Positions 17,388 to 31,755 are shown, counted from the stretch's first letter. The stretch: DNA of 51,816 nt from an uncultured bacterium (GCA_903825415.1 CAIKAN010000051.1:1-51816), one strand, 5' to 3'. A program made the numbers and translations. The notes: generated by a model not told the origin, from the sequence alone.

Positions 17388-19010
17388 TTAATTATTCGAT
17401 CGCTGATATAGACGAGCGCTTGCGTCATTGTCCTTCTTTGGTTTATGAAGAGGTAAAGTCACATAGAATATCGATCCTCTATTCTCCGTCGAATCGAACC
17501 AGAGCTTTCCTCCGGCTTGCTCGACTATCGATCTTGCTATATAGAGGCCGAGACCGGTGCCTTCTGTATCTTTTCCGATCACATTGTCGGCTCGAAATAG
17601 CTTGGTGAATATCTTGTTCTGTTGGTCTTTCGGTATACCATAGCCGGTATCTCTGATCTTCATCAATATATCGCTTCCGTCTATCATGACTGTCGATATG
17701 TAGATCTTTCCGCCATCGGAGGTGTATTTCACGGCATTCGATACTATATTCTGTATGACCATGCGGAGCAGTTTTGGGTCAGTCTTTATGAGAGGTATCT
17801 TCTTGCTGAATGATGAAGTGAGGATGATCCGCTTTTCTGTTATAAGGAGCTTGTGTTCGTCTAGGACGCTTTGGGTCAATTTGACTATATTCGTCGGCTT
17901 GCTTTCGATGATGAGGGTGCCGAGCTCGATGCGCGATACATCGAGCAAGGTATTCACGAGCTCGACCATGCGCTGATTGCCGGCGTAGATCTCTTCTAGG
18001 TATTTCTTTTGATCGGGCGTGACCTTGCCAGCGTCTCCTGCGAGCAGCATCTCGCTGTACCAGTTGACGGTCGAGAGCGGGGTACGGAGCTGGTGCGAAG
18101 CGAGCGAGACGAATTCTGTCTTGGCTTTGTCGATCTCTTTTTCTTTTGTGATATCTCTGAACACTTCGACTGCTCCGACGGTCTTACCGTCTAGGATGAC
18201 TGGAGCGACTATACTGCTAGTAGGGAAGCGGCTCGTATCCTTGCGTATATAATAGAATGGATTGGTGAGGTTTGCGACGAATTTCTCTCCAGAGAGGACT
18301 TGTGTGAGTATCCTTTCCTTGAATGAGACCTTTGTTCCATGGATGTCTTCTCTGGGTACGACTTGGACCATGCTCTTGCCGATGATCTCCTCAGCTTTCC
18401 AACCGAGCATCTCTTCGAATGATTTATTTATATAGTTGATCCGGCCTTCTTTGTCTACTACTACCAGCCCGTCGCCTATGCTGGCCAAGATCGCCTCGCT
18501 CTTGGATCGGATCTGTTCGAGGTCTTTCGTACGCTCCGAGACTTTCTTTTCGAGAGTTTCATAGAGCGATTTGAGCTTCTCTGCAGTTACGACCAATTTA
18601 CGTCTGGCGCTCTCTTTCTCTTTGGCGGTCACCGCCAATTGTTTAGCTGTCACTTCGAGCTTACGCCTAGTGCTCTCTTTTTCTTTAGCTGTCACCGCCA
18701 ATGTTTTGGCAGTCACAACAAGCTTACGCCTAGTACTTTCTTTCTCTTTGGCGGTCACCGCCAATTGTTTAGCTGTCACTTCGAGCTTACGCCTAGTGCT
18801 CTCCTTTTCTTTAGCTGTCACCGCTAGCTGTTTGGCTGTTACTACCAATTTGCGCCTAGTGCTCTCCTTCTCCTTGGCTGTTACCGCCAGTTGTTTGGCT
18901 GTCACAACGAGCTTGCGCCTGATGCCTTCCTTCTCATTCGCCAAAGCCTCGAGCTTACGAGCGATGCCGTCGGCAAGTGTGTCTGTGCGTTTGTCTGGTT
19001 TCATCTGCAT
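17388..19010 (-). CDS. cytoplasmic PAS-domain sensor histidine kinase with an N-terminal 21-aa tandem repeat coiled coil
   Basis: H-box FVSLASHQLRTPLS and G-box GTGLGLYIARSIVEQAGG. A PAS-like region (ILASIGDGLVVVDKEGRINYINKSFEEMLGW). No TM segment. Confidence 0.9.
   Translation of the reverse strand: MQMKPDKRTDTLADGIARKLEALANEKEGIRRKLVVTAKQLAVTAKEKESTRRKLVVTAKQLAVTAKEKESTRRKLEVTAKQLAVTAKEKESTRRKLVVTAKTLAVTAKEKESTRRKLEVTAKQLAVTAKEKESARRKLVVTAEKLKSLYETLEKKVSERTKDLEQIRSKSEAILASIGDGLVVVDKEGRINYINKSFEEMLGWKAEEIIGKSMVQVVPREDIHGTKVSFKERILTQVLSGEKFVANLTNPFYYIRKDTSRFPTSSIVAPVILDGKTVGAVEVFRDITKEKEIDKAKTEFVSLASHQLRTPLSTVNWYSEMLLAGDAGKVTPDQKKYLEEIYAGNQRMVELVNTLLDVSRIELGTLIIESKPTNIVKLTQSVLDEHKLLITEKRIILTSSFSKKIPLIKTDPKLLRMVIQNIVSNAVKYTSDGGKIYISTVMIDGSDILMKIRDTGYGIPKDQQNKIFTKLFRADNVIGKDTEGTGLGLYIARSIVEQAGGKLWFDSTENRGSIFYVTLPLHKPKKDNDASARLYQRSNN
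18567..18920 (-). repeat. 63-bp tandem repeat (about 5.6 units) inside the kinase gene
   Basis: Encodes RRKLVVTAKQLAVTAKEKEST x5 with point variants, plus a partial sixth unit. Confidence 0.9.
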
Positions 19011-22102: not shown

Positions 22103-22825
22103 ATGAATCAAGACAATAAACAGCAATATGCCTTAAGTCGTTTCATTAATGTGATAAGGGATCTGTTGAAAAGTCAGGGGTATTTCGACTATCATCTATA
22201 CTCAACGACGAAGTATAGGATTGAAAATACGGATACATTCAAGGTTAAAGATGATCTGTATTTGCGGTATAATCCAGAACCGGATATCTGGCAGGTAGGA
22301 TCGGTTCACGACAAGTTCTTCTGGATAGGGAGCATGTTCAGGGACGAGAAGAAGATCGATAAGCTGCATAGCAATGAATTTACCGTAGTCGATATCTACC
22401 AGTCCCATGGGACGATGGAGCAGGTCGTTGATAAATATCTTGAGATATTAAGAACTTTGGAAAAGGAATTGAAGTTGCCGAATCTCTCCTTGCTGGAGGT
22501 TGATCATATTAGTCACAAAGAATTTTCCAAGTTGGGTAAAGGCAAATCAAATGATAAGCACTGGTTGGTCGTTACGGAATATCCGACAAGGGAGTCGTTC
22601 TATGATCTTCAAGGTGAGTATACTGAGAATACTTTGAAGTTCGAAATATTTTACGTTGATGGCGATAGAGTGATTGAAATTGCAGCTTGTGGCAATCTTG
22701 GATAAAACTTGAATATAACCAATTATATTTCGGGTGAGGCCGATTTCCTAAACAAGGATATCTTACAGAAAAAATTCATAGGTTTTGGCATAGGTTTGGA
22801 AAGATTGGTAAGTCTCTACTATTAA
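22103..22825 (+). pseudogene. minimal class II aminoacyl-tRNA-synthetase-like catalytic core (subclass IIb/EpmA/AsnA-like) interrupted by one in-frame TAA
   Basis: Motif 2-like FRDEKKIDKLHSNEFTVVD lies before the stop at 22703-22705. After the stop the same frame reads NLNITNYISGEADFLNKDILQKKFIGFGIGLERLVSLYY*, with GFGIGLERL as class II motif 3. 723 nt is 241 codons. Confidence 0.7.
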
Positions 22826-22865: not shown

Positions 22866-23468
22866 TTAACTCTTTAATAATGTTGGTTGCGCTTTCTCAA
22901 ACTCAAAGAGCTCGGAATCGCGTATCAGGATCGTCTTATTTGTTGTGTATGAGATGCCCTTATTTGGTTGTGTCTCGAAGCCTAAGTACAAACAACTTAT
23001 TTTGCGCCGACGGATCTCCTTGATTGCTGGTTGTAAATCAGAATCCGAGCTTGTCAATATGATCTCCATGACCTTCTTGTCGCAAGCAAGGCTTACCATG
23101 TCCACGGCAATTTTCACATCGACACCCTTTTCTTTAAATACCAATACTTTCTTTCCGTCGTAGCCGTCTTCCATTTGGCCTCTTACTCTGCCGCTTAGTA
23201 TGACCTCAAAACCCTGCGCTTCAAGATGGGTCTTGAGTAGGCGTTGCTCCTCTATAAGCTCCTTTGATTTTTCAATGCTCCGCTCATGCTCTTTGATACG
23301 AGCAAAATAAAATACTTTCTTGTCTATCTTTATATCTTTGAGCACTTTATCAAAAAGACCTCTGAAATCGTATTCGTTCCATACAATCATGGGCTTGCGA
23401 GCCTCCTTGAAGACGGTACGCATTTTGCCTTTTAGATTCTCGCCATCAACCAACAAGATTGTTTGCAT
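22866..23468 (-). CDS. NYN-domain (LabA/DUF88-like) protein, putative RNase
   Basis: ILLVDGENL...GVDVKIAVDM...ILTSSDSDLQPAI pattern of NYN/PIN-like nucleases. Confidence 0.7.
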   Translation of the reverse strand: MQTILLVDGENLKGKMRTVFKEARKPMIVWNEYDFRGLFDKVLKDIKIDKKVFYFARIKEHERSIEKSKELIEEQRLLKTHLEAQGFEVILSGRVRGQMEDGYDGKKVLVFKEKGVDVKIAVDMVSLACDKKVMEIILTSSDSDLQPAIKEIRRRKISCLYLGFETQPNKGISYTTNKTILIRDSELFEFEKAQPTLLKS

Positions 23469-23494
23469 GGCCGTATTCTATCAATAAGTAACGC

Positions 23495-23780
23495 AAAACC
23501 CCAGCGGACCGTGAGGCTGGCTGGGGCGTGTATGTCTACACTCTACTCTTTTGTCTACAAAAGTCAATTGAGTGATTAGGGTTGTGTATACCAAAAGAAT
23601 GCCTGATGGTACTTGGCAGTACCTCTTTTGCTTGCTCCGAGAGCGGGATTCGAGTCTTACAGACTCTGTTCAGGTTTCCCATTTCTTCGCATCCTCCGCT
23701 ATCGCTACGGTTGCTTAGAAATATGGGAAACCTTTTCGAATCCTGACGCGAGTGCCGCAGGGCACTCGCTTCTCCCTCGC
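23495..23780 (-). ncRNA. candidate structured RNA of unknown class, bounded by two terminator hairpins
   Basis: No credible ORF. Minus-strand hairpins at 23748-23769 (9 bp), 23673-23732 (14 bp with a 2-nt bulge) and GAGTC-TGTAA-GACTC. GGATTCGA and TCGAATCC are complementary 8-mers at 23736-23743 and 23646-23653. It ends in CCCCAGC...GCTGGGG TTTT (23495-23526). Confidence 0.3.
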
Positions 23781-23820
23781 AAAATATAAAAAGCACCCTT
23801 TGGGATGCTTTTTATATTTT
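23781..23820 (-). terminator. intrinsic terminator of the island cargo operon
   Basis: AAAATATAAAAAGCA...TGCTTTTTATATTTT palindrome, including a GC-containing core stem and a T-run. Confidence 0.7.
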
Positions 23821-23946
23821 GCTCCGCGTTGCGAATGAAATATCTACCTACTTTAAGACCACAAAGGAGTACCATTACATCCCAAATTTGAAGGATGGCA
23901 TCTATGAACTTACCCGGCCGACGACAGAACAGTTGGCAGCAATCAG

Positions 23947-24219
23947 CTAGTCTTTGAGAGAAATAACCTGCAAGCCCTTGCTATCAATATCTTCTCGAGA
24001 CCAGAATTTTGTAAGATCATCAATTTTCCACTTACCGACATAACCGACAGTCTTCTCGAGTGTTCTACCGGTGTAGTTTTTTGTATTAGGGTCCCATTCG
24101 TTAAGTACAAGAGTGTCTCCTTCAGAAATATCAAAATCATTAAGCCTTAATTCAAAGGTCTTTTTACCATCGACTATTTGCTGAAAGTATTCAGGCCAGA
24201 CTTTTTTCTCTATTTTCAT
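23947..24219 (-). CDS. ASCH-domain protein (DUF3850-like)
   Basis: KVWPEYFQQIVDGKKTFELRLNDFDISEGDTLVLNEWDP...YTGR matches the ASCH/DUF3850 pattern. Confidence 0.7.
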   Translation of the reverse strand: MKIEKKVWPEYFQQIVDGKKTFELRLNDFDISEGDTLVLNEWDPNTKNYTGRTLEKTVGYVGKWKIDDLTKFWSREDIDSKGLQVISLKD

Positions 24220-24239
24220 GATTAAGCTATTCTAGCATT

Positions 24240-24545
24240 TTATTTTTCCTTGCGTGGTCCCCACTGCCAGCGTGGTCTTTCTCCTTTCTTGTAGCAGATA
24301 AAAATAAGAAGAGTGGTCAGTACAATGATCGGCAATCCGAATACCAAGAGATTGCTTCCTGAATCAGGATTTCCTGGTATAGCTTCTTCTCTGTTGAACA
24401 CGAGGGCTATGATTAGCGCGACATATGCAAGAATCACAAGCCAACCCTGCCATTTGACCGGAACCCAGCCCCAGCCATAGAGTTTGGCTTTAAACCAGTG
24501 GCCTTGCGGGTTGTCTTTCAAATATTCTATGTATTCTTTAATCAT
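24240..24545 (-). CDS. small membrane protein (2 TM)
   Basis: 101-aa ORF, 5 nt from the upstream gene. Confidence 0.5.
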   Translation of the reverse strand: MIKEYIEYLKDNPQGHWFKAKLYGWGWVPVKWQGWLVILAYVALIIALVFNREEAIPGNPDSGSNLLVFGLPIIVLTTLLIFICYKKGERPRWQWGPRKEK

Positions 24546-24550
24546 AGTTT

Positions 24551-24862
24551 TTATTGATCCAGTTCACCATCAGTGAATTGGCTATCGATGACTGCTTTAC
24601 GGTACTTCAACATTTCGAGGTCTTTTTTAAGCTCGGCATTTTGCTGTTGCTCCTGTGCGATTACTGTTTCGAGCCCCTGAAGGGAATAGGTAAAACCTTC
24701 CTTCAAGTGTTCTTTGAGGTCTTGCATACCCAATGTTTTCTTTTCAACTTTGAGCCTTGCACCTAAAACAGCCAGCTCCTCATCTGACATTTTTATGTCA
24801 TTTTCTTTTGCGGCAATTTCTGCTATGGCCTGATCGATTAAATGTTGTTTGAGATTTTTCAT
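24551..24862 (-). CDS. coiled-coil hypothetical protein
   Basis: 103 aa, charged, with heptad-like sequence. Confidence 0.5.
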   Translation of the reverse strand: MKNLKQHLIDQAIAEIAAKENDIKMSDEELAVLGARLKVEKKTLGMQDLKEHLKEGFTYSLQGLETVIAQEQQQNAELKKDLEMLKYRKAVIDSQFTDGELDQ

Positions 24863-24946
24863 GGAAGTAAGAAAAGTTGATACGACTATTCTATCACGGA
24901 TGACGAAGATGAAGATTCGTAAGTTATCGTTCGGATAAAATATCAG

Positions 24947-25237
24947 CTATTGAGTAACTGTAACAACCAACCCAATACTTCCCAACACCTTAGCTACCTT
25001 TTCACATTTCTCATTTGAACCTTCACATACTATTACACTTCCAGTACGGTCAGCAAAAAATGCTAGATTATCAGCCCTCTCTTTTGTGCATTGGATAGCT
25101 CTTATAATCTGTAGAGTAACAGCTTCAAAGGTATGACAATTACAATTAAATAAAATAGTTTTCCAACCCGATGAATGGGTCGGATCAGTTGTTAACGTCA
25201 TATTTATCGGACCTATTTTGGTGCCGTCTGTACTCAT
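24947..25237 (-). CDS. ClpS-like (N-degron adaptor fold) protein
   Basis: WKTILFNCNCHTFEAVTLQIIRAIQCTKERADNLAFFADRTGSVIVCEGSNEKCEKVAKVL parallels the ClpS core (v.l.NDd.t.fe.V...l......A......h..G.a.v). Confidence 0.5.
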   Translation of the reverse strand: MSTDGTKIGPINMTLTTDPTHSSGWKTILFNCNCHTFEAVTLQIIRAIQCTKERADNLAFFADRTGSVIVCEGSNEKCEKVAKVLGSIGLVVTVTQ

Positions 25238-25244
25238 AATATTT

Positions 25245-25865
25245 TCAATCTTTCTTTAACATTTTATAAATGCGCTCAGCAGATATAAGTTTATTTTCCT
25301 CATCTACTGCGCTCATTTGACCTTGCACATAATTCACCAAGGCTTCGTCGTTATTACCAACCACTTCTTGTAATGCTCCAAGTGCATAAGCAACTATACT
25401 TTGTCCCTCTTTCTCTACTTTTCCTTGTGCCATTTTTAATATTCCCACAGCCAGTTCATGATCACCCATCTTTTGAGCACTTAGAGAAGCCATACACCAA
25501 GGCGCAGCTTTATAGGGTATTAGGGCAATTTCTTCTGTGAAAGCTTCGTAGGCTTCCTTGTATTTTTCTAGTTCTGTATAGTCTTCACCAATATAACTCC
25601 ATATATAAGGGAAGCGAGGTTCAATTTCTATAACTTTTTTATAGTGTTGAATTGCAGTCTCATAATTTTTTTCTGATTCAGCGATTTTGCCCAGATAAAT
25701 GTAGGCAATACCGTTATTTGGATTGGGTATTAAAAAATTAATACATTTTTCTTTACAGGTATTGTATTCCTTATTCTTAAAATCATCGACGATATCATCA
25801 GGCAAATCTCCTAAAGATTTAAATGTTCCGGTATTGCTCATACACTGAATTTTACTCGATGACAA
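25245..25865 (-). CDS. TPR-repeat protein
   Basis: Repeated A..Y.G.......Y..A...Y.KA.E..P-type 34-aa units (for example YLGKIAESEKNYETAIQHYKKVIEIEP). Confidence 0.8.
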   Translation of the reverse strand: MSSSKIQCMSNTGTFKSLGDLPDDIVDDFKNKEYNTCKEKCINFLIPNPNNGIAYIYLGKIAESEKNYETAIQHYKKVIEIEPRFPYIWSYIGEDYTELEKYKEAYEAFTEEIALIPYKAAPWCMASLSAQKMGDHELAVGILKMAQGKVEKEGQSIVAYALGALQEVVGNNDEALVNYVQGQMSAVDEENKLISAERIYKMLKKD

Positions 25866-25904
25866 GAGCTAAAGTAAAGGATATGAATATGGACTGGATC
25901 ACCA

Positions 25905-26147
25905 CTATGACTTTGCTTTTTCTTCCTCCATATCAAGTAATATTTTCTCGACAACCTTACCCATAGTACTTTTCCTACGTGCTTGGGTGAAATCGTATTC
26001 CTCCTGGGTCATTGGTTTGTAGACTGCCTTCATGAGAGTCAAAAGCTGCGTACCTTTTGCGAGAGCTTCAGCGCGAGAAATATCCTTATTGAAATGCTTT
26101 TTATACAGCGCCTGAAAACTTTTGAGATCCTTATCAGTTAATTGCAT
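25905..26147 (-). CDS. hypothetical protein (80 aa)
   Basis: ORF tightly packed within the operon. Confidence 0.45.
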   Translation of the reverse strand: MQLTDKDLKSFQALYKKHFNKDISRAEALAKGTQLLTLMKAVYKPMTQEEYDFTQARRKSTMGKVVEKILLDMEEEKAKS

Positions 26148-26153
26148 ATATTT

Positions 26154-26462
26154 TTATGGGCGTTGCCACCACGCAACGATTTTACCGACGATTAATAACA
26201 ACACGCCATATCCTGCGAGAGTGACTCCGTACAACATGCCTGGTATATGTAAATCAATACCGCCTTGAACTGGGGCATTGTTACCGGCCCAGGCAAGTCC
26301 GCCCAAAATCATCAGAACAGAAACAAGGATTAGTAGCTTTCCGGTTTTCTTAACTTTGTGACCGCCTTCAACGCGCACTTTCGTGGAGCCGCCAAGACCA
26401 AGCCAGGCCCCTAAAATTAGGACCACAAGACCTCCAACCACGGTAATAAATAATTCGCTCAT
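26154..26462 (-). CDS. small membrane protein (3 TM, Gly-rich)
   Basis: 102-aa hydrophobic ORF. Confidence 0.5.
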   Translation of the reverse strand: MSELFITVVGGLVVLILGAWLGLGGSTKVRVEGGHKVKKTGKLLILVSVLMILGGLAWAGNNAPVQGGIDLHIPGMLYGVTLAGYGVLLLIVGKIVAWWQRP

Positions 26463-26504
26463 GTGGCAACATTATTCCTAGAAGTCAAAAAAGTAAAGAG
26501 TCAA

Positions 26505-28040
26505 TCAGGACGGGAGTTTTCTTGATGTTTCCTTTTCAACACGCAAGATACAGCCTCGAAATTTAGATGTGTCGGGGAATATTTGGAAACCGCAGTTACT
26601 AAATAGCTTCTCAAGACCACTCTGGGTATATTCATCAAAAGAATCTTCTGCGGAAATCCAACCAGAAATCCTGTTAACATTATTCGCCTCAGCAAGGAGT
26701 GTAAGAACTTTAAGCATTTCCTTAGCCCATCCACAATTTCTATTTTTGGTATCAACAAAAAGATCTTCAATTTCAATTTGTTTTTCTTTTACACTGAAAT
26801 GTAGCCAACCCCCTTTCTTCTTGTCTTTATCACGCTTGTCAAAGAAATTGATGATGAAAAAATTACCACGATTTGGATTTATCGCTGGAACGTTTAATAT
26901 TTCATAAATTACATCAACTGATCTTTTATCTTTCCACGAGCCAGTCCTTATTACTTTCCGTTCCTTCCTGGTTTTGAAAAAAGTCTTCCAGACTCTTAGG
27001 TTGAATATACGGTCCCAAGAAAGTGTGCGCACAAACATATTCTGTGCCCAAGACTCAATTAAATATTTGTTGATATAATCCCAAGTGAAAAAACCTACGC
27101 CATTATCTCCCCAATCTCGTCCCCAGGAATTAGCAAAATAAATACCATCTTTGTCATAACCAATTGCAACAACGCAGTGTTGTCCCATGGATCTTTCTCC
27201 TTCTACTGGCATCGGTACGTGTCCTTTTGGAGCAGATATAATACTTTCAAAAATATCAATTGAAATAGATGCTGCATGAAAATGATATATAGCGTATCTT
27301 ATTTCTTCTGCATTATAGAGCCGCTGATAGTATTCGATTCTGTGTTTCAACGCATTTTTGGTGGCGGCCTCGGGTATCTTTGTATTCATTAGCTCCCATT
27401 CAGTCTCGTATTCTTTGTGGGGAAAATATTTCTCCTCACAAATACCATACAGCTTAGTGGTTCTAACCGTAGTGATAACGCTCATGCCGCGATTTGTTTT
27501 CATTTCTTGCGGATTTTGAGTGTCCCACTTTCCATTAATAAATTTAACTAACACCGCATGTTTGCCTCGATATTTGAGTACCTCTCTTCGTATTACACCT
27601 AAAGCTCCGGGCATTGAGTTGAGAGCTGATCCAAGACTATCCTTCGAATTCAGCGTCGAAATAAGAAAACATGTTCTAAGTGGAAAATCATCCATTCTTT
27701 GAATCTCAGATACTAAAAGTATCTCGGCATTTCTCCCTTTGTTCTTTAGATTTTTTATCCAGGATGTGATTTTGTTGTAGTGATCAGCACCAGCTTGGCC
27801 GACTATTCCAGCAAAGTAGCTGGTTACAATAAAAACAGCGGCATATTTTGTGTAATCAAGAAATTCGATAATCTGCGCTGGAGCTGCAGATCGCACCTTA
27901 GATTCTAAAAGCCCTCTCTTTGTCTCAAAGGCTAAAACACCGTCTTTTCTCAGCTCTTTCTTAAAAACATTTAGTTCATCAGAAAATGCTGGATCAATGT
28001 GTGGAATTTCTATGAAAACTTGCGTTGACTTGCGGTTCAT
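26505..28040 (-). CDS. multidomain protein: unknown N-terminal domain, papain-like (C1) peptidase fold, GNAT-like C-terminal domain
   Basis: QHCVVAIGYD...ANSWGRDWGDNGVGFF is the His/Asn-Trp half of the papain fold. The C-terminus (IEDLFVD...NCGWAKEMLKVLTLLAE...GWIS...LFSNCGFQ) is GNAT-like. Start set to ATG 28040 (MNRKSTQ) rather than 28202. Confidence 0.6.
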   Translation of the reverse strand: MNRKSTQVFIEIPHIDPAFSDELNVFKKELRKDGVLAFETKRGLLESKVRSAAPAQIIEFLDYTKYAAVFIVTSYFAGIVGQAGADHYNKITSWIKNLKNKGRNAEILLVSEIQRMDDFPLRTCFLISTLNSKDSLGSALNSMPGALGVIRREVLKYRGKHAVLVKFINGKWDTQNPQEMKTNRGMSVITTVRTTKLYGICEEKYFPHKEYETEWELMNTKIPEAATKNALKHRIEYYQRLYNAEEIRYAIYHFHAASISIDIFESIISAPKGHVPMPVEGERSMGQHCVVAIGYDKDGIYFANSWGRDWGDNGVGFFTWDYINKYLIESWAQNMFVRTLSWDRIFNLRVWKTFFKTRKERKVIRTGSWKDKRSVDVIYEILNVPAINPNRGNFFIINFFDKRDKDKKKGGWLHFSVKEKQIEIEDLFVDTKNRNCGWAKEMLKVLTLLAEANNVNRISGWISAEDSFDEYTQSGLEKLFSNCGFQIFPDTSKFRGCILRVEKETSRKLPS

Positions 28041-28105
28041 AATATTGAGTATTATATTCTTTTTACGATTTGATATAAAGCTAGACTTCTCCTGGACCTT
28101 CCGGT

Positions 28106-28330
28106 ATGTTCGTGTGTGTGAAAAAAGTATTTGTAAAAGCAACACCGAAAGACATAAACGGCACAGGTTTTGTCGGATATCTCCAAGTCTCATACGAGGC
28201 ACTCTTTAACTCTTTCAGCTTTCCCAACGATCGTACCCGAGAAGATGAATGGAGATCAGGCGACCAGAAGACTCGGGTAGAATGGGCATTCAAGACAAAG
28301 GGCAAGAAGCCGACCGTCATAACAATTTAG
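28106..28330 (+). CDS. small hypothetical protein, first gene of the rightward island operon
   Basis: 74-aa ORF divergent from the cargo operon. Non-repetitive, protein-like sequence. Confidence 0.4.
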   Translation: MFVCVKKVFVKATPKDINGTGFVGYLQVSYEALFNSFSFPNDRTREDEWRSGDQKTRVEWAFKTKGKKPTVITI

Positions 28331-28400
28331 GAAGCGATCAAACTCCTGACAGTCTTCGACTACATCTATCGGCCTATCAAGAAGGTGTGGCTCAAAGACT

Positions 28401-29408
28401 ATGAACGACGATATAAAGATTTTCCAGGAGTGGTCACAGCCGGAGAAGAAGAAAGTGCAGATAGCGCACGCATACCACAAAGCGAAGATCGAGGAACTGA
28501 AGAATCAGATTGACCGAGCGGTCCTTCGCGGCAAGAGAAAGCCTACTCGCTTTTTCATGGAGAATGAATTTGTGGAGCATGGCTATATGGGAAAGTTACC
28601 GAAACTCTGCACGCTCGTCTATTGCGCAATTCTAAAGCATGGCAATACCGAGACACAGGTCGCCTGGCCAAGTTTGACTACCATTCAAGATCTGACCGGC
28701 GAGAAAAACAGAAACTATGTTGCCAATGCGGTCCGGCTTCTTGTTGAGTGCAGTATTCTTGGTGTGGTCCAAGCAAAAACTGGCTTTAAGACCTTGAACC
28801 TCTACTACTTCAAGTCGGTCGATTTTTGGAAAAGCATCGCTCATGTTAGCAAGCGTCTGAAGCTCAAGGATTCAGTTGCGCAGTATCCAGATGTGCGTCT
28901 CCGTAGTATCCGAAAGCGCAGAAACCGTAGTATTAACGTAGATACTCTAACTAACCAAAATAATAAATCTCCTAATTCTTTAACTAGCATCGGAGATTTC
29001 TTAAAAGGAAGAATGCAGAAATGGCAGATACCGCCTGCAGTTGCTATTCCAGAGGCTTCTGGGCATAGTGTCGTTCGGACAGAAGAAGAAAGACAATACC
29101 CTTGGAGACAGAAACAAGAGGGTCCCTATGAAGGAGTAGATTCTCCTGATAGATCAGGAGAATTACAGGATAATCGCAGTATCGTAGAAGATACTACGGT
29201 CATTCCCGTAAATACGGGTAATTTACGGGAACCAAACTCTGTTGAGACCCCCGAAGAACCACCACTCGGTAGTATCTCACTCGATACTGCGGAACCACCA
29301 TTTAAAAACGGTGGAAAAGCGGTCGAGAGCGCATTTGAGACCCACACAGAATTAAGCCTGGACGACATAACCCAAGAAGACCTTGGACCAGGAAAAGCAA
29401 CATTATGA
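28401..29408 (+). CDS. winged-helix (HTH) protein, replication-initiator or DnaD-like in mobile elements
   Basis: LCTLVYCAILKHGN...AWPSLTTIQDLTGEKNRNYVANAVRLLVECSIL. 4-nt ATGA overlap with the recombinase gene. Confidence 0.5.
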   Translation: MNDDIKIFQEWSQPEKKKVQIAHAYHKAKIEELKNQIDRAVLRGKRKPTRFFMENEFVEHGYMGKLPKLCTLVYCAILKHGNTETQVAWPSLTTIQDLTGEKNRNYVANAVRLLVECSILGVVQAKTGFKTLNLYYFKSVDFWKSIAHVSKRLKLKDSVAQYPDVRLRSIRKRRNRSINVDTLTNQNNKSPNSLTSIGDFLKGRMQKWQIPPAVAIPEASGHSVVRTEEERQYPWRQKQEGPYEGVDSPDRSGELQDNRSIVEDTTVIPVNTGNLREPNSVETPEEPPLGSISLDTAEPPFKNGGKAVESAFETHTELSLDDITQEDLGPGKATL

Positions 29409-31057
29409 ACCCAAAGATAAACGCACCAATTAAATACTTTCTCTATGCCCGAAAATCGAGCGAGGCTGAAGATCGCCAGGCAGCATCAATCGATGCCCAA
29501 AAAGACGAGCTTTTGAAGATTGCCAAGGATCAAGGCTTAAACGTCATCGGTATCCTTGAGGAATCACAATCGGCAAAGAAACCAGGGAGAAAGATTTTCA
29601 ACTCCATGCTCGAGAGAATCTATAAGGGTGAAGCTAACGGCATCCTGTGTTGGAAATTGGACCGACTCGCGCGCAATCCTGTAGATGGCGGACAGATAAG
29701 CTGGATGTTGCAGCAGAGTGCGATATCTCAAATTGTCACTTTCGGCAGAACATACTATCCAACAGACAACGTCCTCATGATGCAAGTGGAACTTGGCATG
29801 GCCAATCAATTTATTCGTGACCTCTCTGTGAACGTAAAGCGAGGTCTGCAAAAGAAAGTGAGAGATGGCTGGATGCCGAGCGGCGCACCTGTCGGCTATC
29901 TCAACACGCCAAATAAGCAGAAGGGATACAAGACCCTGGAGAAGGATCCTGAGAGATTTCCATTAGTTCGAAGGCTCTTTGACCTTGTACTTACCGGCAA
30001 CTATTCGATTGCGCAAATCTGGAACATCTCCCGAAAGAAATTGAACCTGACAACAGTGCCGCGTAAAAACATTGGCGGTAAGCATCTCTCACGATCAGGA
30101 ATCTATGCACTCCTAAGCAACCCGTTTTATTACGGCTGGTTTGAGTTTCCACTGCATAGCGGTGAATGGCACAAAGGCAGTCATGAGCAGATGATAACCA
30201 AAGAGGAGTTTGATCGGTGCCAGAAGATTATGGGCCGTACCAGTCAGCCTCGGCCGAGAGAAGAAAGACTCTTTGCTTTTACCGGCATGATGAAGTGTGC
30301 AACGTGCGGTTGTAGTATTACCGCCCAAGCGAAAGTAAAACGCCAGAAGAATGGCAATGTTCACCATTACACCTATTATAATTGCACCAAAAAGAGATAC
30401 GATGCCGAATGTGATGAGAAGCATGTCGAGGTAAAACTTCTACATTTCCAAATCGGAGCGGTACTCCAGGATATACGAATTTCAGAGGAGTATCGTGATT
30501 GGGCCATTCGTCATGTTCATGAGGTCCGCAAGAATGAGGCTGAAAGTAATTCAATGGCACTCAAGACAAAACATAAGGAGTGCGAAGAAGTAACACAGCA
30601 GCTGCAGTCATTGACCTTGAATTTTACTGGACCAACTAATAAGGATCGAACCATCATCAGCGATGAGGAGTATCAAGCTCTCAAGTCGGATTTACTCAAA
30701 AGAAAGGGTGTCCTAGAGGACGATTTAAAGTTTAAGAATAAGGCTGTAGAACAATGGGCTGAACTTTCAGAGCAAACCTTTGACTTTGCCTGCTATGCCC
30801 ACCTTTGGTACGAAAATGGGGACGAAAAGATCAAAAGAGCGATACTCGCATGCCTTGGCTCGAACCTCACCATAAAGGGCAAAAAACTCCAGATTTCCTA
30901 CACTTCTTTCTTTTTGAGCCTCATAAAAGCACGAGATGCTATTGAGCAGGAAATTGAGCACGCTCGAACCTATAAATATCCAAGCCTGACAAAACAAAAC
31001 AGGCATGATGTGCCTGTTTTGTCACTAGGGCTCCGGAGACAGGATTCGAACCTGTGA
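29405..31057 (+). CDS. large serine recombinase
   Basis: Catalytic YARKSSEAEDRQ and LDRLARN (resolvase domain), a recombinase domain, a zinc ribbon (CATCGC...YYNCTKK) and a coiled coil. The last 27 nt overlap the tRNA-Asn 3' end. Confidence 0.9.
   Translation: MNPKINAPIKYFLYARKSSEAEDRQAASIDAQKDELLKIAKDQGLNVIGILEESQSAKKPGRKIFNSMLERIYKGEANGILCWKLDRLARNPVDGGQISWMLQQSAISQIVTFGRTYYPTDNVLMMQVELGMANQFIRDLSVNVKRGLQKKVRDGWMPSGAPVGYLNTPNKQKGYKTLEKDPERFPLVRRLFDLVLTGNYSIAQIWNISRKKLNLTTVPRKNIGGKHLSRSGIYALLSNPFYYGWFEFPLHSGEWHKGSHEQMITKEEFDRCQKIMGRTSQPRPREERLFAFTGMMKCATCGCSITAQAKVKRQKNGNVHHYTYYNCTKKRYDAECDEKHVEVKLLHFQIGAVLQDIRISEEYRDWAIRHVHEVRKNEAESNSMALKTKHKECEEVTQQLQSLTLNFTGPTNKDRTIISDEEYQALKSDLLKRKGVLEDDLKFKNKAVEQWAELSEQTFDFACYAHLWYENGDEKIKRAILACLGSNLTIKGKKLQISYTSFFLSLIKARDAIEQEIEHARTYKYPSLTKQNRHDVPVLSLGLRRQDSNL
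30990..31022 (-). terminator. terminator hairpin downstream of tRNA-Asn, lying inside the recombinase ORF tail
   Basis: CAAAACAGGCA-tgatg-TGCCTGTTTTG. On the minus strand it is followed by TTTTGT. Confidence 0.65.
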
Positions 31058-31068
31058 CCAATCGCTTA

Positions 31069-31637
31069 CATTGCTCCTATTGTTACTAATAGGGATGGAC
31101 TATATCATTCCCGTGTTCTTGATTGTTCAAGAGTTTAGGGACGAGGGGCTTCGTTCCTCGACTATGCTCGGAACTACTCCTGAAAAGGATAGTCTCTACA
31201 CCTTCCTAGTCCGTTTGAAATGACTAGGCTCGGCTCGGGATTGCCCCAAAGCTATTAACTTCTGGGTTTCCCCGAATTCACCTCGTTTTCGACCAAGATT
31301 TCTCTTGGAAGCTGCAAGATGCCTGCTTCAACTTCACAATGACAGTTGGCGCATAAAAGGATGCATTTATCTAATTCTGCTCTTACTTTTGTCCAAGAAC
31401 GCGTATAGCCTTTGTCACCGATACCAAAGCTCTTTTCGTCTTTGTTGATATGGTGAAGTTCTAATGCATTCTGACATCTGTTGTAATTGCAAATCTGACA
31501 TTTGCCACCTTTATATTCTATCGACAAAGCTTTTACCTTGCGTCGCCTTTTGGCAACAGCCTTGATAAGTGCTTCACGTCGATCGGCATATTTTCGATTG
31601 TCTGACATAATTACATTATATCAAACAGTCTAAGTTT
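31069..31637 (-). mobile_element. group I intron (IC3-like core) with an embedded homing-endonuclease ORF
   Basis: The exon ends in U and the intron ends in ...GGAGCAAUG. GGGGCAAUCCCGAGCCGAGCC lies at 31247-31227 and GAAGGUGUAGAGACUA at 31205-31190, with a GACUAU/AUAGUC P7-like pairing. Confidence 0.75.
31255..31608 (-). CDS. HNH homing endonuclease (intron-encoded)
   Basis: CQICNYNRC...LELHHINKD...LLCANCHCEVE (CxxC...HH...CxxCH). Confidence 0.8.
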   Translation of the reverse strand: MSDNRKYADRREALIKAVAKRRRKVKALSIEYKGGKCQICNYNRCQNALELHHINKDEKSFGIGDKGYTRSWTKVRAELDKCILLCANCHCEVEAGILQLPREILVENEVNSGKPRS

Positions 31638-31755
31638 ACAGGCGACTGCTCTACCGCTGAGCTACTCCGGAATATGTTTCTTTTAAAGAACGGGCATCTG
31701 GAAATGTACCATATCTAGCTGTGCAAATCAAAATGCGATACATTATAGGGATAGC

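Follow-up and report, generated by a model that had tools for sequence, protein, structure and literature searches.

An eight-gene array in a Patescibacteria contig is probably a mosaic of cassettes, with a Cys-less papain-fold/GNAT protein and a TPR/ClpS-fold pair among them

We analyzed an array of eight genes within a 51,816-nt stretch of DNA from an uncultured bacterium (GCA_903825415.1, CAIKAN010000051.1:1-51816), the whole of which is referred to here as the window. The genes are numbered g1 to g8 in transcription order, and include a fusion of a papain-fold domain to a GNAT domain (g1), a tetratricopeptide repeat (TPR) protein (g4), a ClpS-fold protein (g5) and a DUF3850/ASCH protein (g8). 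Our findings indicate that the array has probably been built up from at least five cassettes that assort independently, in a variable locus of the defence-island type, and is not one machine. The cassettes would comprise g1 with g2 and g3, g4 with g5, and g6, g7 and g8 singly, and the array would sit beside a serine-recombinase unit that abuts a tRNA-Asn gene. The host genome was assigned to the Patescibacteria (Candidate Phyla Radiation, CPR) through the organism names that homologues of the modules carry.

The mosaic structure emerged from comparison of the window with related contigs (designated L001, L002 and so on). Among the loci compared, the g1 fusion, the ClpS-like gene and the ASCH gene can be found together only in this window, which contradicts the original prediction that all eight genes form one integrated system. 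The closest relative, L001, shares 94% DNA identity with the window and has a g1 that is 99% identical; it keeps g1, g2, g3, g6 and g7, and is without the TPR (g4), ClpS-like (g5) and ASCH (g8) genes. The segment common to both contigs (23821-28329 in the window) is made up of blocks of unequal identity (96% across 28329-26156, 74-81% in g3, 89% in g6 and 80-84% in g7), and its flanks differ on both sides. It ends in a tail block (23821-23924) that separates g8 from the closing hairpin and is 98% identical to L001 14268-14371. Relative to L001, the window carries a 1047-nt insertion with g4 and g5 and a 311-nt insertion with the single gene g8; in L001, g6 is separated from g7 by TspO, a 172-aa gene and a cupin gene.

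The genes of the array also part company across the wider set of contigs. The eight other g1 loci contain neither a ClpS-like nor an ASCH gene, and the genes downstream of g1 homologues at 85-37% identity are unrelated to one another (a 5-TM (transmembrane) protein, a 188-aa soluble protein, GmrSD, a small secreted protein). The g4-g5 pair is present in six other contigs (L013-L017 and L021) at 84-87% DNA identity, all without g1, giving seven loci in total, and more distant ClpS-like genes are solitary or have other partners. Homologues of g2 (93% amino acid identity) and of g6 (93% amino acid and 89% DNA identity) were found in L001 only, those of g3 in L001 (87% amino acid identity) and L013 (57%), and those of g7 in L001, L014 and L041, each in a different context.

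Open reading frame (ORF) calling in the window confirmed the eight predicted minus-strand, co-oriented ORFs, which are separated, from g1 to g8, by gaps of 42, 6, 63, 7, 84, 5 and 20 nt (the third is 39 nt if g4 is read from TTG 25865). All eight look like real genes, since g1 to g7 have protein homologues in other contigs and g8 has strong family matches. A promoter-like site (TTTATA-17-TATAAT; 28051-28079, minus strand) with 10 of 12 consensus matches precedes the g1 start codon by 11 nt. Another (TTTACT-18-TAAAAT; 25849-25878, minus strand) lies within the g4-g5 module, upstream of the g4 ATG, and is kept in all but one of the six further copies of that module; the g4-g5 cassette would bring its own promoter-like site. 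The strong closing terminator of the original prediction was also recovered, as a bidirectional terminator-like hairpin at 23779-23822, 125 nt past the array end, with 20-nt arms that are 95% complementary and T/A runs on both flanks; it is absent from the list of a simple terminator scan. The tail block holds a 43-aa plus-strand ORF (23819-23950) that resembles a gene remnant; in the genes next to the block, identity to L001 is only 80-89%. We also considered an integron-like cassette array, which was rejected: an integron integrase is lacking, gaps of 5-84 nt leave no room for attC sites, and every cassette junction is different.

The first gene, g1 (26505-28040, minus strand), encodes 511 aa from an ATG. 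Its product consists of an N-terminal alpha/beta domain of no known family (residues ~1-180), a papain-fold domain (~185-335) and a GNAT domain (~365-505). The Pfam match to Peptidase_C1 covers the C-terminal half only (E 2.5e-7; profile positions 79-199 of 220), and the GNAT domain scores below the Pfam gathering threshold (15.3 bits against 27 for Acetyltransf_7). When g1 relatives were aligned (n = 39), Peptidase_C1 was detected in 35 and Acetyltransf_1 (E<=0.01) in 32. An AlphaFold2 model built from a 39-sequence alignment reached a pLDDT (predicted local distance difference test) of 88.3 and a pTM (predicted template modelling score) of 0.87; an attempt with six sequences gave a pLDDT of 49 and was discarded. 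Foldseek searches of the PDB matched the middle domain to xylellain (3ois, E 4e-9), papain (1pad) and cathepsin B, with about two thirds of the fold aligned, and the C-terminal domain to 3d8p, GCN5, RimI and NatD (E 3e-7 to 1e-5; TM-scores to target 0.5-0.6), which confirms both folds of the predicted fusion.

Close homologues of g1 are rare, with only five in a set of 5.8 billion proteins. The wider family amounts to 396 clusters at E<=1e-10 when representatives clustered at 50% identity are searched exhaustively. Many of its members are ~320 aa long and cover g1 residues 180-503, and thus keep both C-terminal domains but lack the first 180 residues. We found no match to g1 among cultured phage genomes or plasmids. 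Its matches in IMG/VR are C1 peptidases of the ordinary kind from giant viruses, and structure matches in BFVD comprise C1 peptidases and acetyltransferases of phages and giant viruses, with a few phage proteins spanning both domains. We found no description of a papain-like/GNAT fusion in Pfam, NCBIfam, PADLOC or PHROGs. In L003, the g1 homologue (256-1765) is split by a frameshift into 449 and 65 aa, an instance of decay of a module gene.

We counted catalytic motifs over 153 family representatives (g1 and 152 relatives), and the GNAT motif over the 95 that carry a GNAT domain. His288 and Asn304 of g1, aligned to papain His159 and Asn175, are present in 152 and 145 of the 153 representatives, respectively. 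No representative (0/153) has a Cys at aligned positions 186-187, which precede helix 188-197, because this helix matches papain 67-78 and not the Cys25 helix. The register is set by G185, helix 188-197 and the sequence YGICEEKYFP of g1, which correspond to G65-G66, helix 67-78 and YGIHYRNTYPY of papain (the helix and the sequence that follows it align to papain 67-91). By both profile and alignment, the Gln19-Cys25 helix segment of papain is absent or unrecognisable in g1. Ser187 was considered as a substitute nucleophile, as S or T occurs there in many relatives, and was ruled out by the registration of the helix with papain 67-78. The short forms of the family have a conserved N-terminal hS-x-x-[FY] motif, which, as far as sequence can indicate, may occupy the place of the Gln19/Cys25 segment.

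A classical papain mechanism for g1 is not supported by these motif states, and the earlier suggestion that a peptidase creates new N-termini becomes doubtful, because no nucleophile Cys was detected in the papain-like half. We propose that this truncated, Cys-less half would serve as a substrate-binding or non-cysteine catalytic module and not as a classical protease, and that its probable role is to bind a peptide-like substrate and not to cleave it. The acetyl-CoA pyrophosphate-binding motif of g1 reads R434-N-C-G437-W-A439. In the 95 GNAT-bearing representatives, the motif R-x-x-G-x-[GA] is intact, with 83 R and 7 Q at its first position, 86 G at its fourth, and 72 G and 17 A at its last. 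The g1 protein would work alone, as an acetyl-CoA-dependent acyltransferase.

The relationship of g1 to known enzymes is one of partial likeness. With C1 peptidases such as xylellain and papain (PF00112) it shares the R-domain beta-barrel and the preceding helix, as well as the His and Asn-Ser-Trp-Gly motifs (GQH288C...ANSWGRDWGDNG). It differs from them in having no detectable nucleophile Cys, in a profile match that begins only at position 79 of 220, and in the fused GNAT domain, to which the CPR long form adds the 180-aa, CPR-specific N-terminal domain. With the GNATs (GCN5, RimI, NatD and 3d8p) it has in common the fold and the R/Q-x-x-G-x-G/A motif, but its Pfam score is sub-gathering and a papain-like domain is fused to it.

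The second module comprises g4 and g5. The mechanical ORF of g4 (25245-25865, minus strand) begins at a TTG, but homologues are better matched by the ATG start at 25841, which yields a protein of 198 aa (25245-25841). It passes the Pfam thresholds for TPR_1 (52.7 bits) and TPR_2 (47.3 bits). The 96-aa product of g5 (24947-25237, minus strand) scores 39.5 bits against a cutoff of 23 for Pfam ClpS (PF02617), and its sequence matches in the PDB are Plasmodium ClpS (4o2x) and the ClpS-homology domain of UBR2. It does not reach the NCBIfam ClpS equivalog cutoff (best 23 bits, cutoff 86). The predicted domain labels of both proteins are therefore borne out by Pfam. The ClpS-like family contains 19 clusters and 31 genome loci, in metagenome-assembled genomes of the Taylorbacteria/Parcubacteria type and in Elusimicrobia. 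We found no viral match to the ClpS-like protein. The ClpS-like gene of L021 (5001-5171) is truncated to 56 aa, another case of module gene decay.

ClpS binds the alpha-amino group of its substrate through Asn34, Asp35 and His66 (E. coli numbering), of which Asp35 and His66 contact the free N-terminal amino group. In the hhalign register, position p of g5 corresponds to E. coli ClpS p+3; Asn34 is kept as Asn31, Asp35 is replaced by the family-invariant Cys32, and His66 is replaced by Asp63. The replacement of these two residues undermines the role of N-degron reader that had been suggested for g5. Across the family, ILFNCxCH is invariant and Cys50 and Cys78 are near-invariant, and the resulting CxCH...C...C pattern is, on sequence grounds, a probable metal-binding site. 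The protein therefore resembles ClpS and the UBR1-UBR2 ClpS-homology domain in its Pfam ClpS score and its core (LFNxxxHTFE, comparable with LFNDEVHTYE of UBR2), whereas it differs in the replaced Asp35 and His66, in the CxCH motif and two further Cys residues, and in the TPR partner of its closest relatives. No Clp ATPase gene occurs among the Pfam-annotated neighbours in four CPR ClpS-like loci, and no ClpA-sized or ClpA-like ORF adjoins the Elusimicrobia loci, as judged from ORF lists only. In the arrangement that we envisage, the TPR scaffold would partner a ClpS-fold protein with a remodelled N-degron pocket, whose ligand is expected to be something other than a free hydrophobic N-terminus.

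The remaining genes are small. Following g1, g2 (26154-26462, minus strand) encodes 102 aa with three hydrophobic segments and g3 (25905-26147, minus strand) an uncharacterised 80-aa protein. Beyond g5 lie g6 (24551-24862, minus strand; 103 aa, likewise uncharacterised and originally predicted to be a coiled-coil protein) and g7 (24240-24545, minus strand; 101 aa, two hydrophobic segments); the segment counts for g2 and g7 agree with the 3-TM and 2-TM proteins that had been predicted. The last gene, g8 (23947-24219, minus strand), encodes a 90-aa protein that exceeds the thresholds of DUF3850 (PF12961; 70.4 bits against 22.9) and ASCH (PF04266; 28.7 bits against 21.2), as predicted, and matches PHROG 986 'RNA-binding protein' (E 1.4e-20). 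We suggest that it would act as a stand-alone small ASCH-type protein, probably RNA-binding.

Homologues of both modules recur beside defence genes, in keeping with the conflict or defence flavour of the original prediction. Defence genes stand alongside the g1 homologue in five of the eight other g1 loci: type I restriction-modification (RM), AbiE and Shedu in L001; EcoRI methylase, GmrSD and AbiE in L002; LexA-S24-methylase and GmrSD in L044; EcoRV RM in L045; and DpnII RM in L047. The TPR/ClpS-like copies adjoin AbiEii/AbiEi, HsdM and Fic, SNF2 helicase, EcoRI methylase or reverse transcriptase (RT) genes in 6/6 cases. The recurrence of g1 beside RM and Abi genes therefore suggests a role in conflict with phages or mobile elements. 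Like known defence islands (with RM, AbiE, Shedu, GmrSD or retron-like RT genes), these loci show whole-gene swaps between close relatives; the window itself differs in that no classical defence gene adjoins the array, with the exception of an NYN-domain protein (22866-23468, minus strand) that matches the PADLOC candidate HEC-09 (E 9e-11). NYN genes can also be seen near the ClpS-like genes in L006 and L021.

Several observations weigh against a mosaic of cassettes with a part in defence. Co-orientation, short gaps and a single closing hairpin may allow read-through co-transcription and some functional coupling of the eight genes. The genes g1, g2, g3, g6 and g7 are linked in L001, and they occur together in no other contig; L001 is, however, too close (94%) for this to prove selection for linkage. 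The association with defence genes is drawn from short metagenomic contigs, about a dozen in all, and lacks a statistical background, and none of the eight proteins has a significant match in PADLOC-DB 2.0. The Elusimicrobia ClpS-like genes (L022-L043, 41-54% identity) lie in ordinary chromosomal settings, beside glycosyltransferases, an aldo-keto reductase and rplM-rpsI, and the CxCH variant is therefore not confined to islands. In g1, a non-canonical nucleophile near His288 may be possible.

A different account, which we regard as possible but not probable, is that the array is the cargo of a serine-recombinase integrative element inserted at the 3' end of tRNA-Asn; it is compatible with the mosaic structure. 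An HTH_36 gene (28401-29408, plus strand) begins 360 nt from the array, and next to it is a large serine recombinase gene (29405-31057, plus strand), 1.4 kb from g1 and 69% identical to that of L009/L020. A 569-nt group I intron (RF00028, 52 bits) splits the anticodon loop of the tRNA-Asn(GUU) gene (31028-31672, minus strand) and contains an HNH-type ORF of 117 aa (31255-31608); this tRNA was not reported by default ARAGORN. The recombinase ORF and the tRNA overlap at their 3' ends (31029-31059), and DNA homology to the recombinase element of L020 (L020 6784-6860) stops at ~31035 (...GTCACTAGGGCTCC), exactly at the tRNA end, which suggests an att boundary near 31035. The different flanks of the L001-common segment, the lower G+C over 22-28 kb (0.36-0.41) and the occurrence of recombinase relatives near ClpS-like genes in L009/L020 and L013 also favour an integrative element. 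However, no direct repeat of the tRNA 3' end was found that could represent a second att site, the ClpS-like gene of L020 is on the opposite side of the recombinase and does not belong to the presumed element, and no recombinase accompanies the backbone of the array in L001. The sole similarity to the tRNA 3' end is an inverted match (22 nt, 77%) at 23735-23756, which was judged to be due to chance.

The border of the array on the recombinase side also fits a clean insertion less well. A truncated copy of a small gene (28106-28330, plus strand) retains 74 of ~120 aa and is cut after codon 74 at 28328-28330, and homology to L001, L013 and L015-L017 ends at ~28329-28332, at this truncation point. 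The rest of the gene is absent from the window, and a secondary rearrangement therefore fits better. The ~120-aa family recurs at cassette borders in L001 (9567-9935), L013, L015 (2183-2605), L016 and L017 (3137-3490), carries the motif FVGYLQ..SFSFPNDRTR.DEWRSGDQKTR, and has no Pfam or PHROG match. In L015 and L017, the gene lies directly downstream of a ~330-aa RVT_1 reverse transcriptase, and the two may form a retron- or DRT-like pair.

For g1 considered singly, two other functions were weighed. It could be a self-protection or detoxification enzyme against a peptide-like or aminoacyl antibiotic, with the small membrane proteins as part of the trait, and analogues exist in the GNAT domain of MccE alongside the peptidase MccF and in bleomycin hydrolase alongside the acetyltransferase BlmB. 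The fusion of a peptidase-fold domain to an intact-looking GNAT and the small membrane proteins encoded after g1 in the window, in L001 and in L002 would fit such a function; it is nonetheless improbable, as no biosynthetic or transporter genes occur nearby in the window or the g1 loci, the downstream genes are not conserved, and the neighbours are RM and Abi genes and not antibiotic clusters. We consider it very improbable that g1 is a Mom-like enzyme tied to adjacent RM genes, in which the GNAT would acylate a nucleic acid base. DNA acylation by a GNAT-superfamily enzyme is known from Mom (PMC7824862), and in five loci g1 directly adjoins a methylase or an RM system, but the RM partner is different at every locus and none adjoins g1 in the window, and the structural matches are protein and small-molecule GNATs, not Mom. 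Finally, one undescribed eight-gene system, in which the peptidase/GNAT protein would process and acetylate protein or RNA, the ClpS-like protein read N-termini and the ASCH protein act on acetylated RNA, would account for the compact arrangement and the confirmed domain labels, but is likewise very improbable given the unique co-occurrence in this window, the three genes missing from L001, the lack of a catalytic Cys and the lost N-degron contacts.

Other features of the window lie outside the array. Between the hairpin and the NYN gene, ~300 nt (23480-23780) fold better than shuffled sequences (z -13.4 on the minus and -9.7 on the plus strand), with no Rfam family and no exact match in the genome collection. 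A 540-aa ORF (17388-19010) includes five tandem copies of a 63-nt unit at 18583-19004 (61-84% identical to the reference copy). The low-G+C stretch also contains a 200-aa ORF (22103-22705) whose similarity to class II aminoacyl-tRNA synthetases of the D/K/N type is confined to their N-terminal part; it may be a fragment or a paralogue.

In conclusion, the attractive story of an 'N-terminus processing system' built from peptidase, GNAT, ClpS and ASCH proteins is corrected by our findings, and gene adjacency in CPR variable islands can come from cassette accretion. What the analysis shows directly is which genes are present, their folds, the states of their motifs and their failure to co-occur; the activities and the part in defence are inferred from these. 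Mosaic variable islands are of an already known kind, and the two inner modules are uncharacterised variants of known folds; neither is described in Pfam, NCBIfam, PADLOC, PHROGs or the searched literature, in which nothing specific was found on ClpS or papain-GNAT fusions in defence contexts. We tentatively raise the idea, unlikely as it is at present, that at least one of them, the g1 protein or the TPR and CxCH ClpS-fold pair, has an undescribed anti-phage or anti-mobile-element function in CPR bacteria, in which case the TPR-partnered ClpS fold would be a metal-dependent sensor or adaptor and not an N-degron reader. Our analysis isolates two testable units from the array, namely the Cys-less papain-fold/GNAT family and the ClpS-fold protein with a Cys-rich pocket and its TPR partner. 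On the evidence of guilt by association, either unit could add a new type of effector or sensor to the defence repertoire of the little-studied Patescibacteria.

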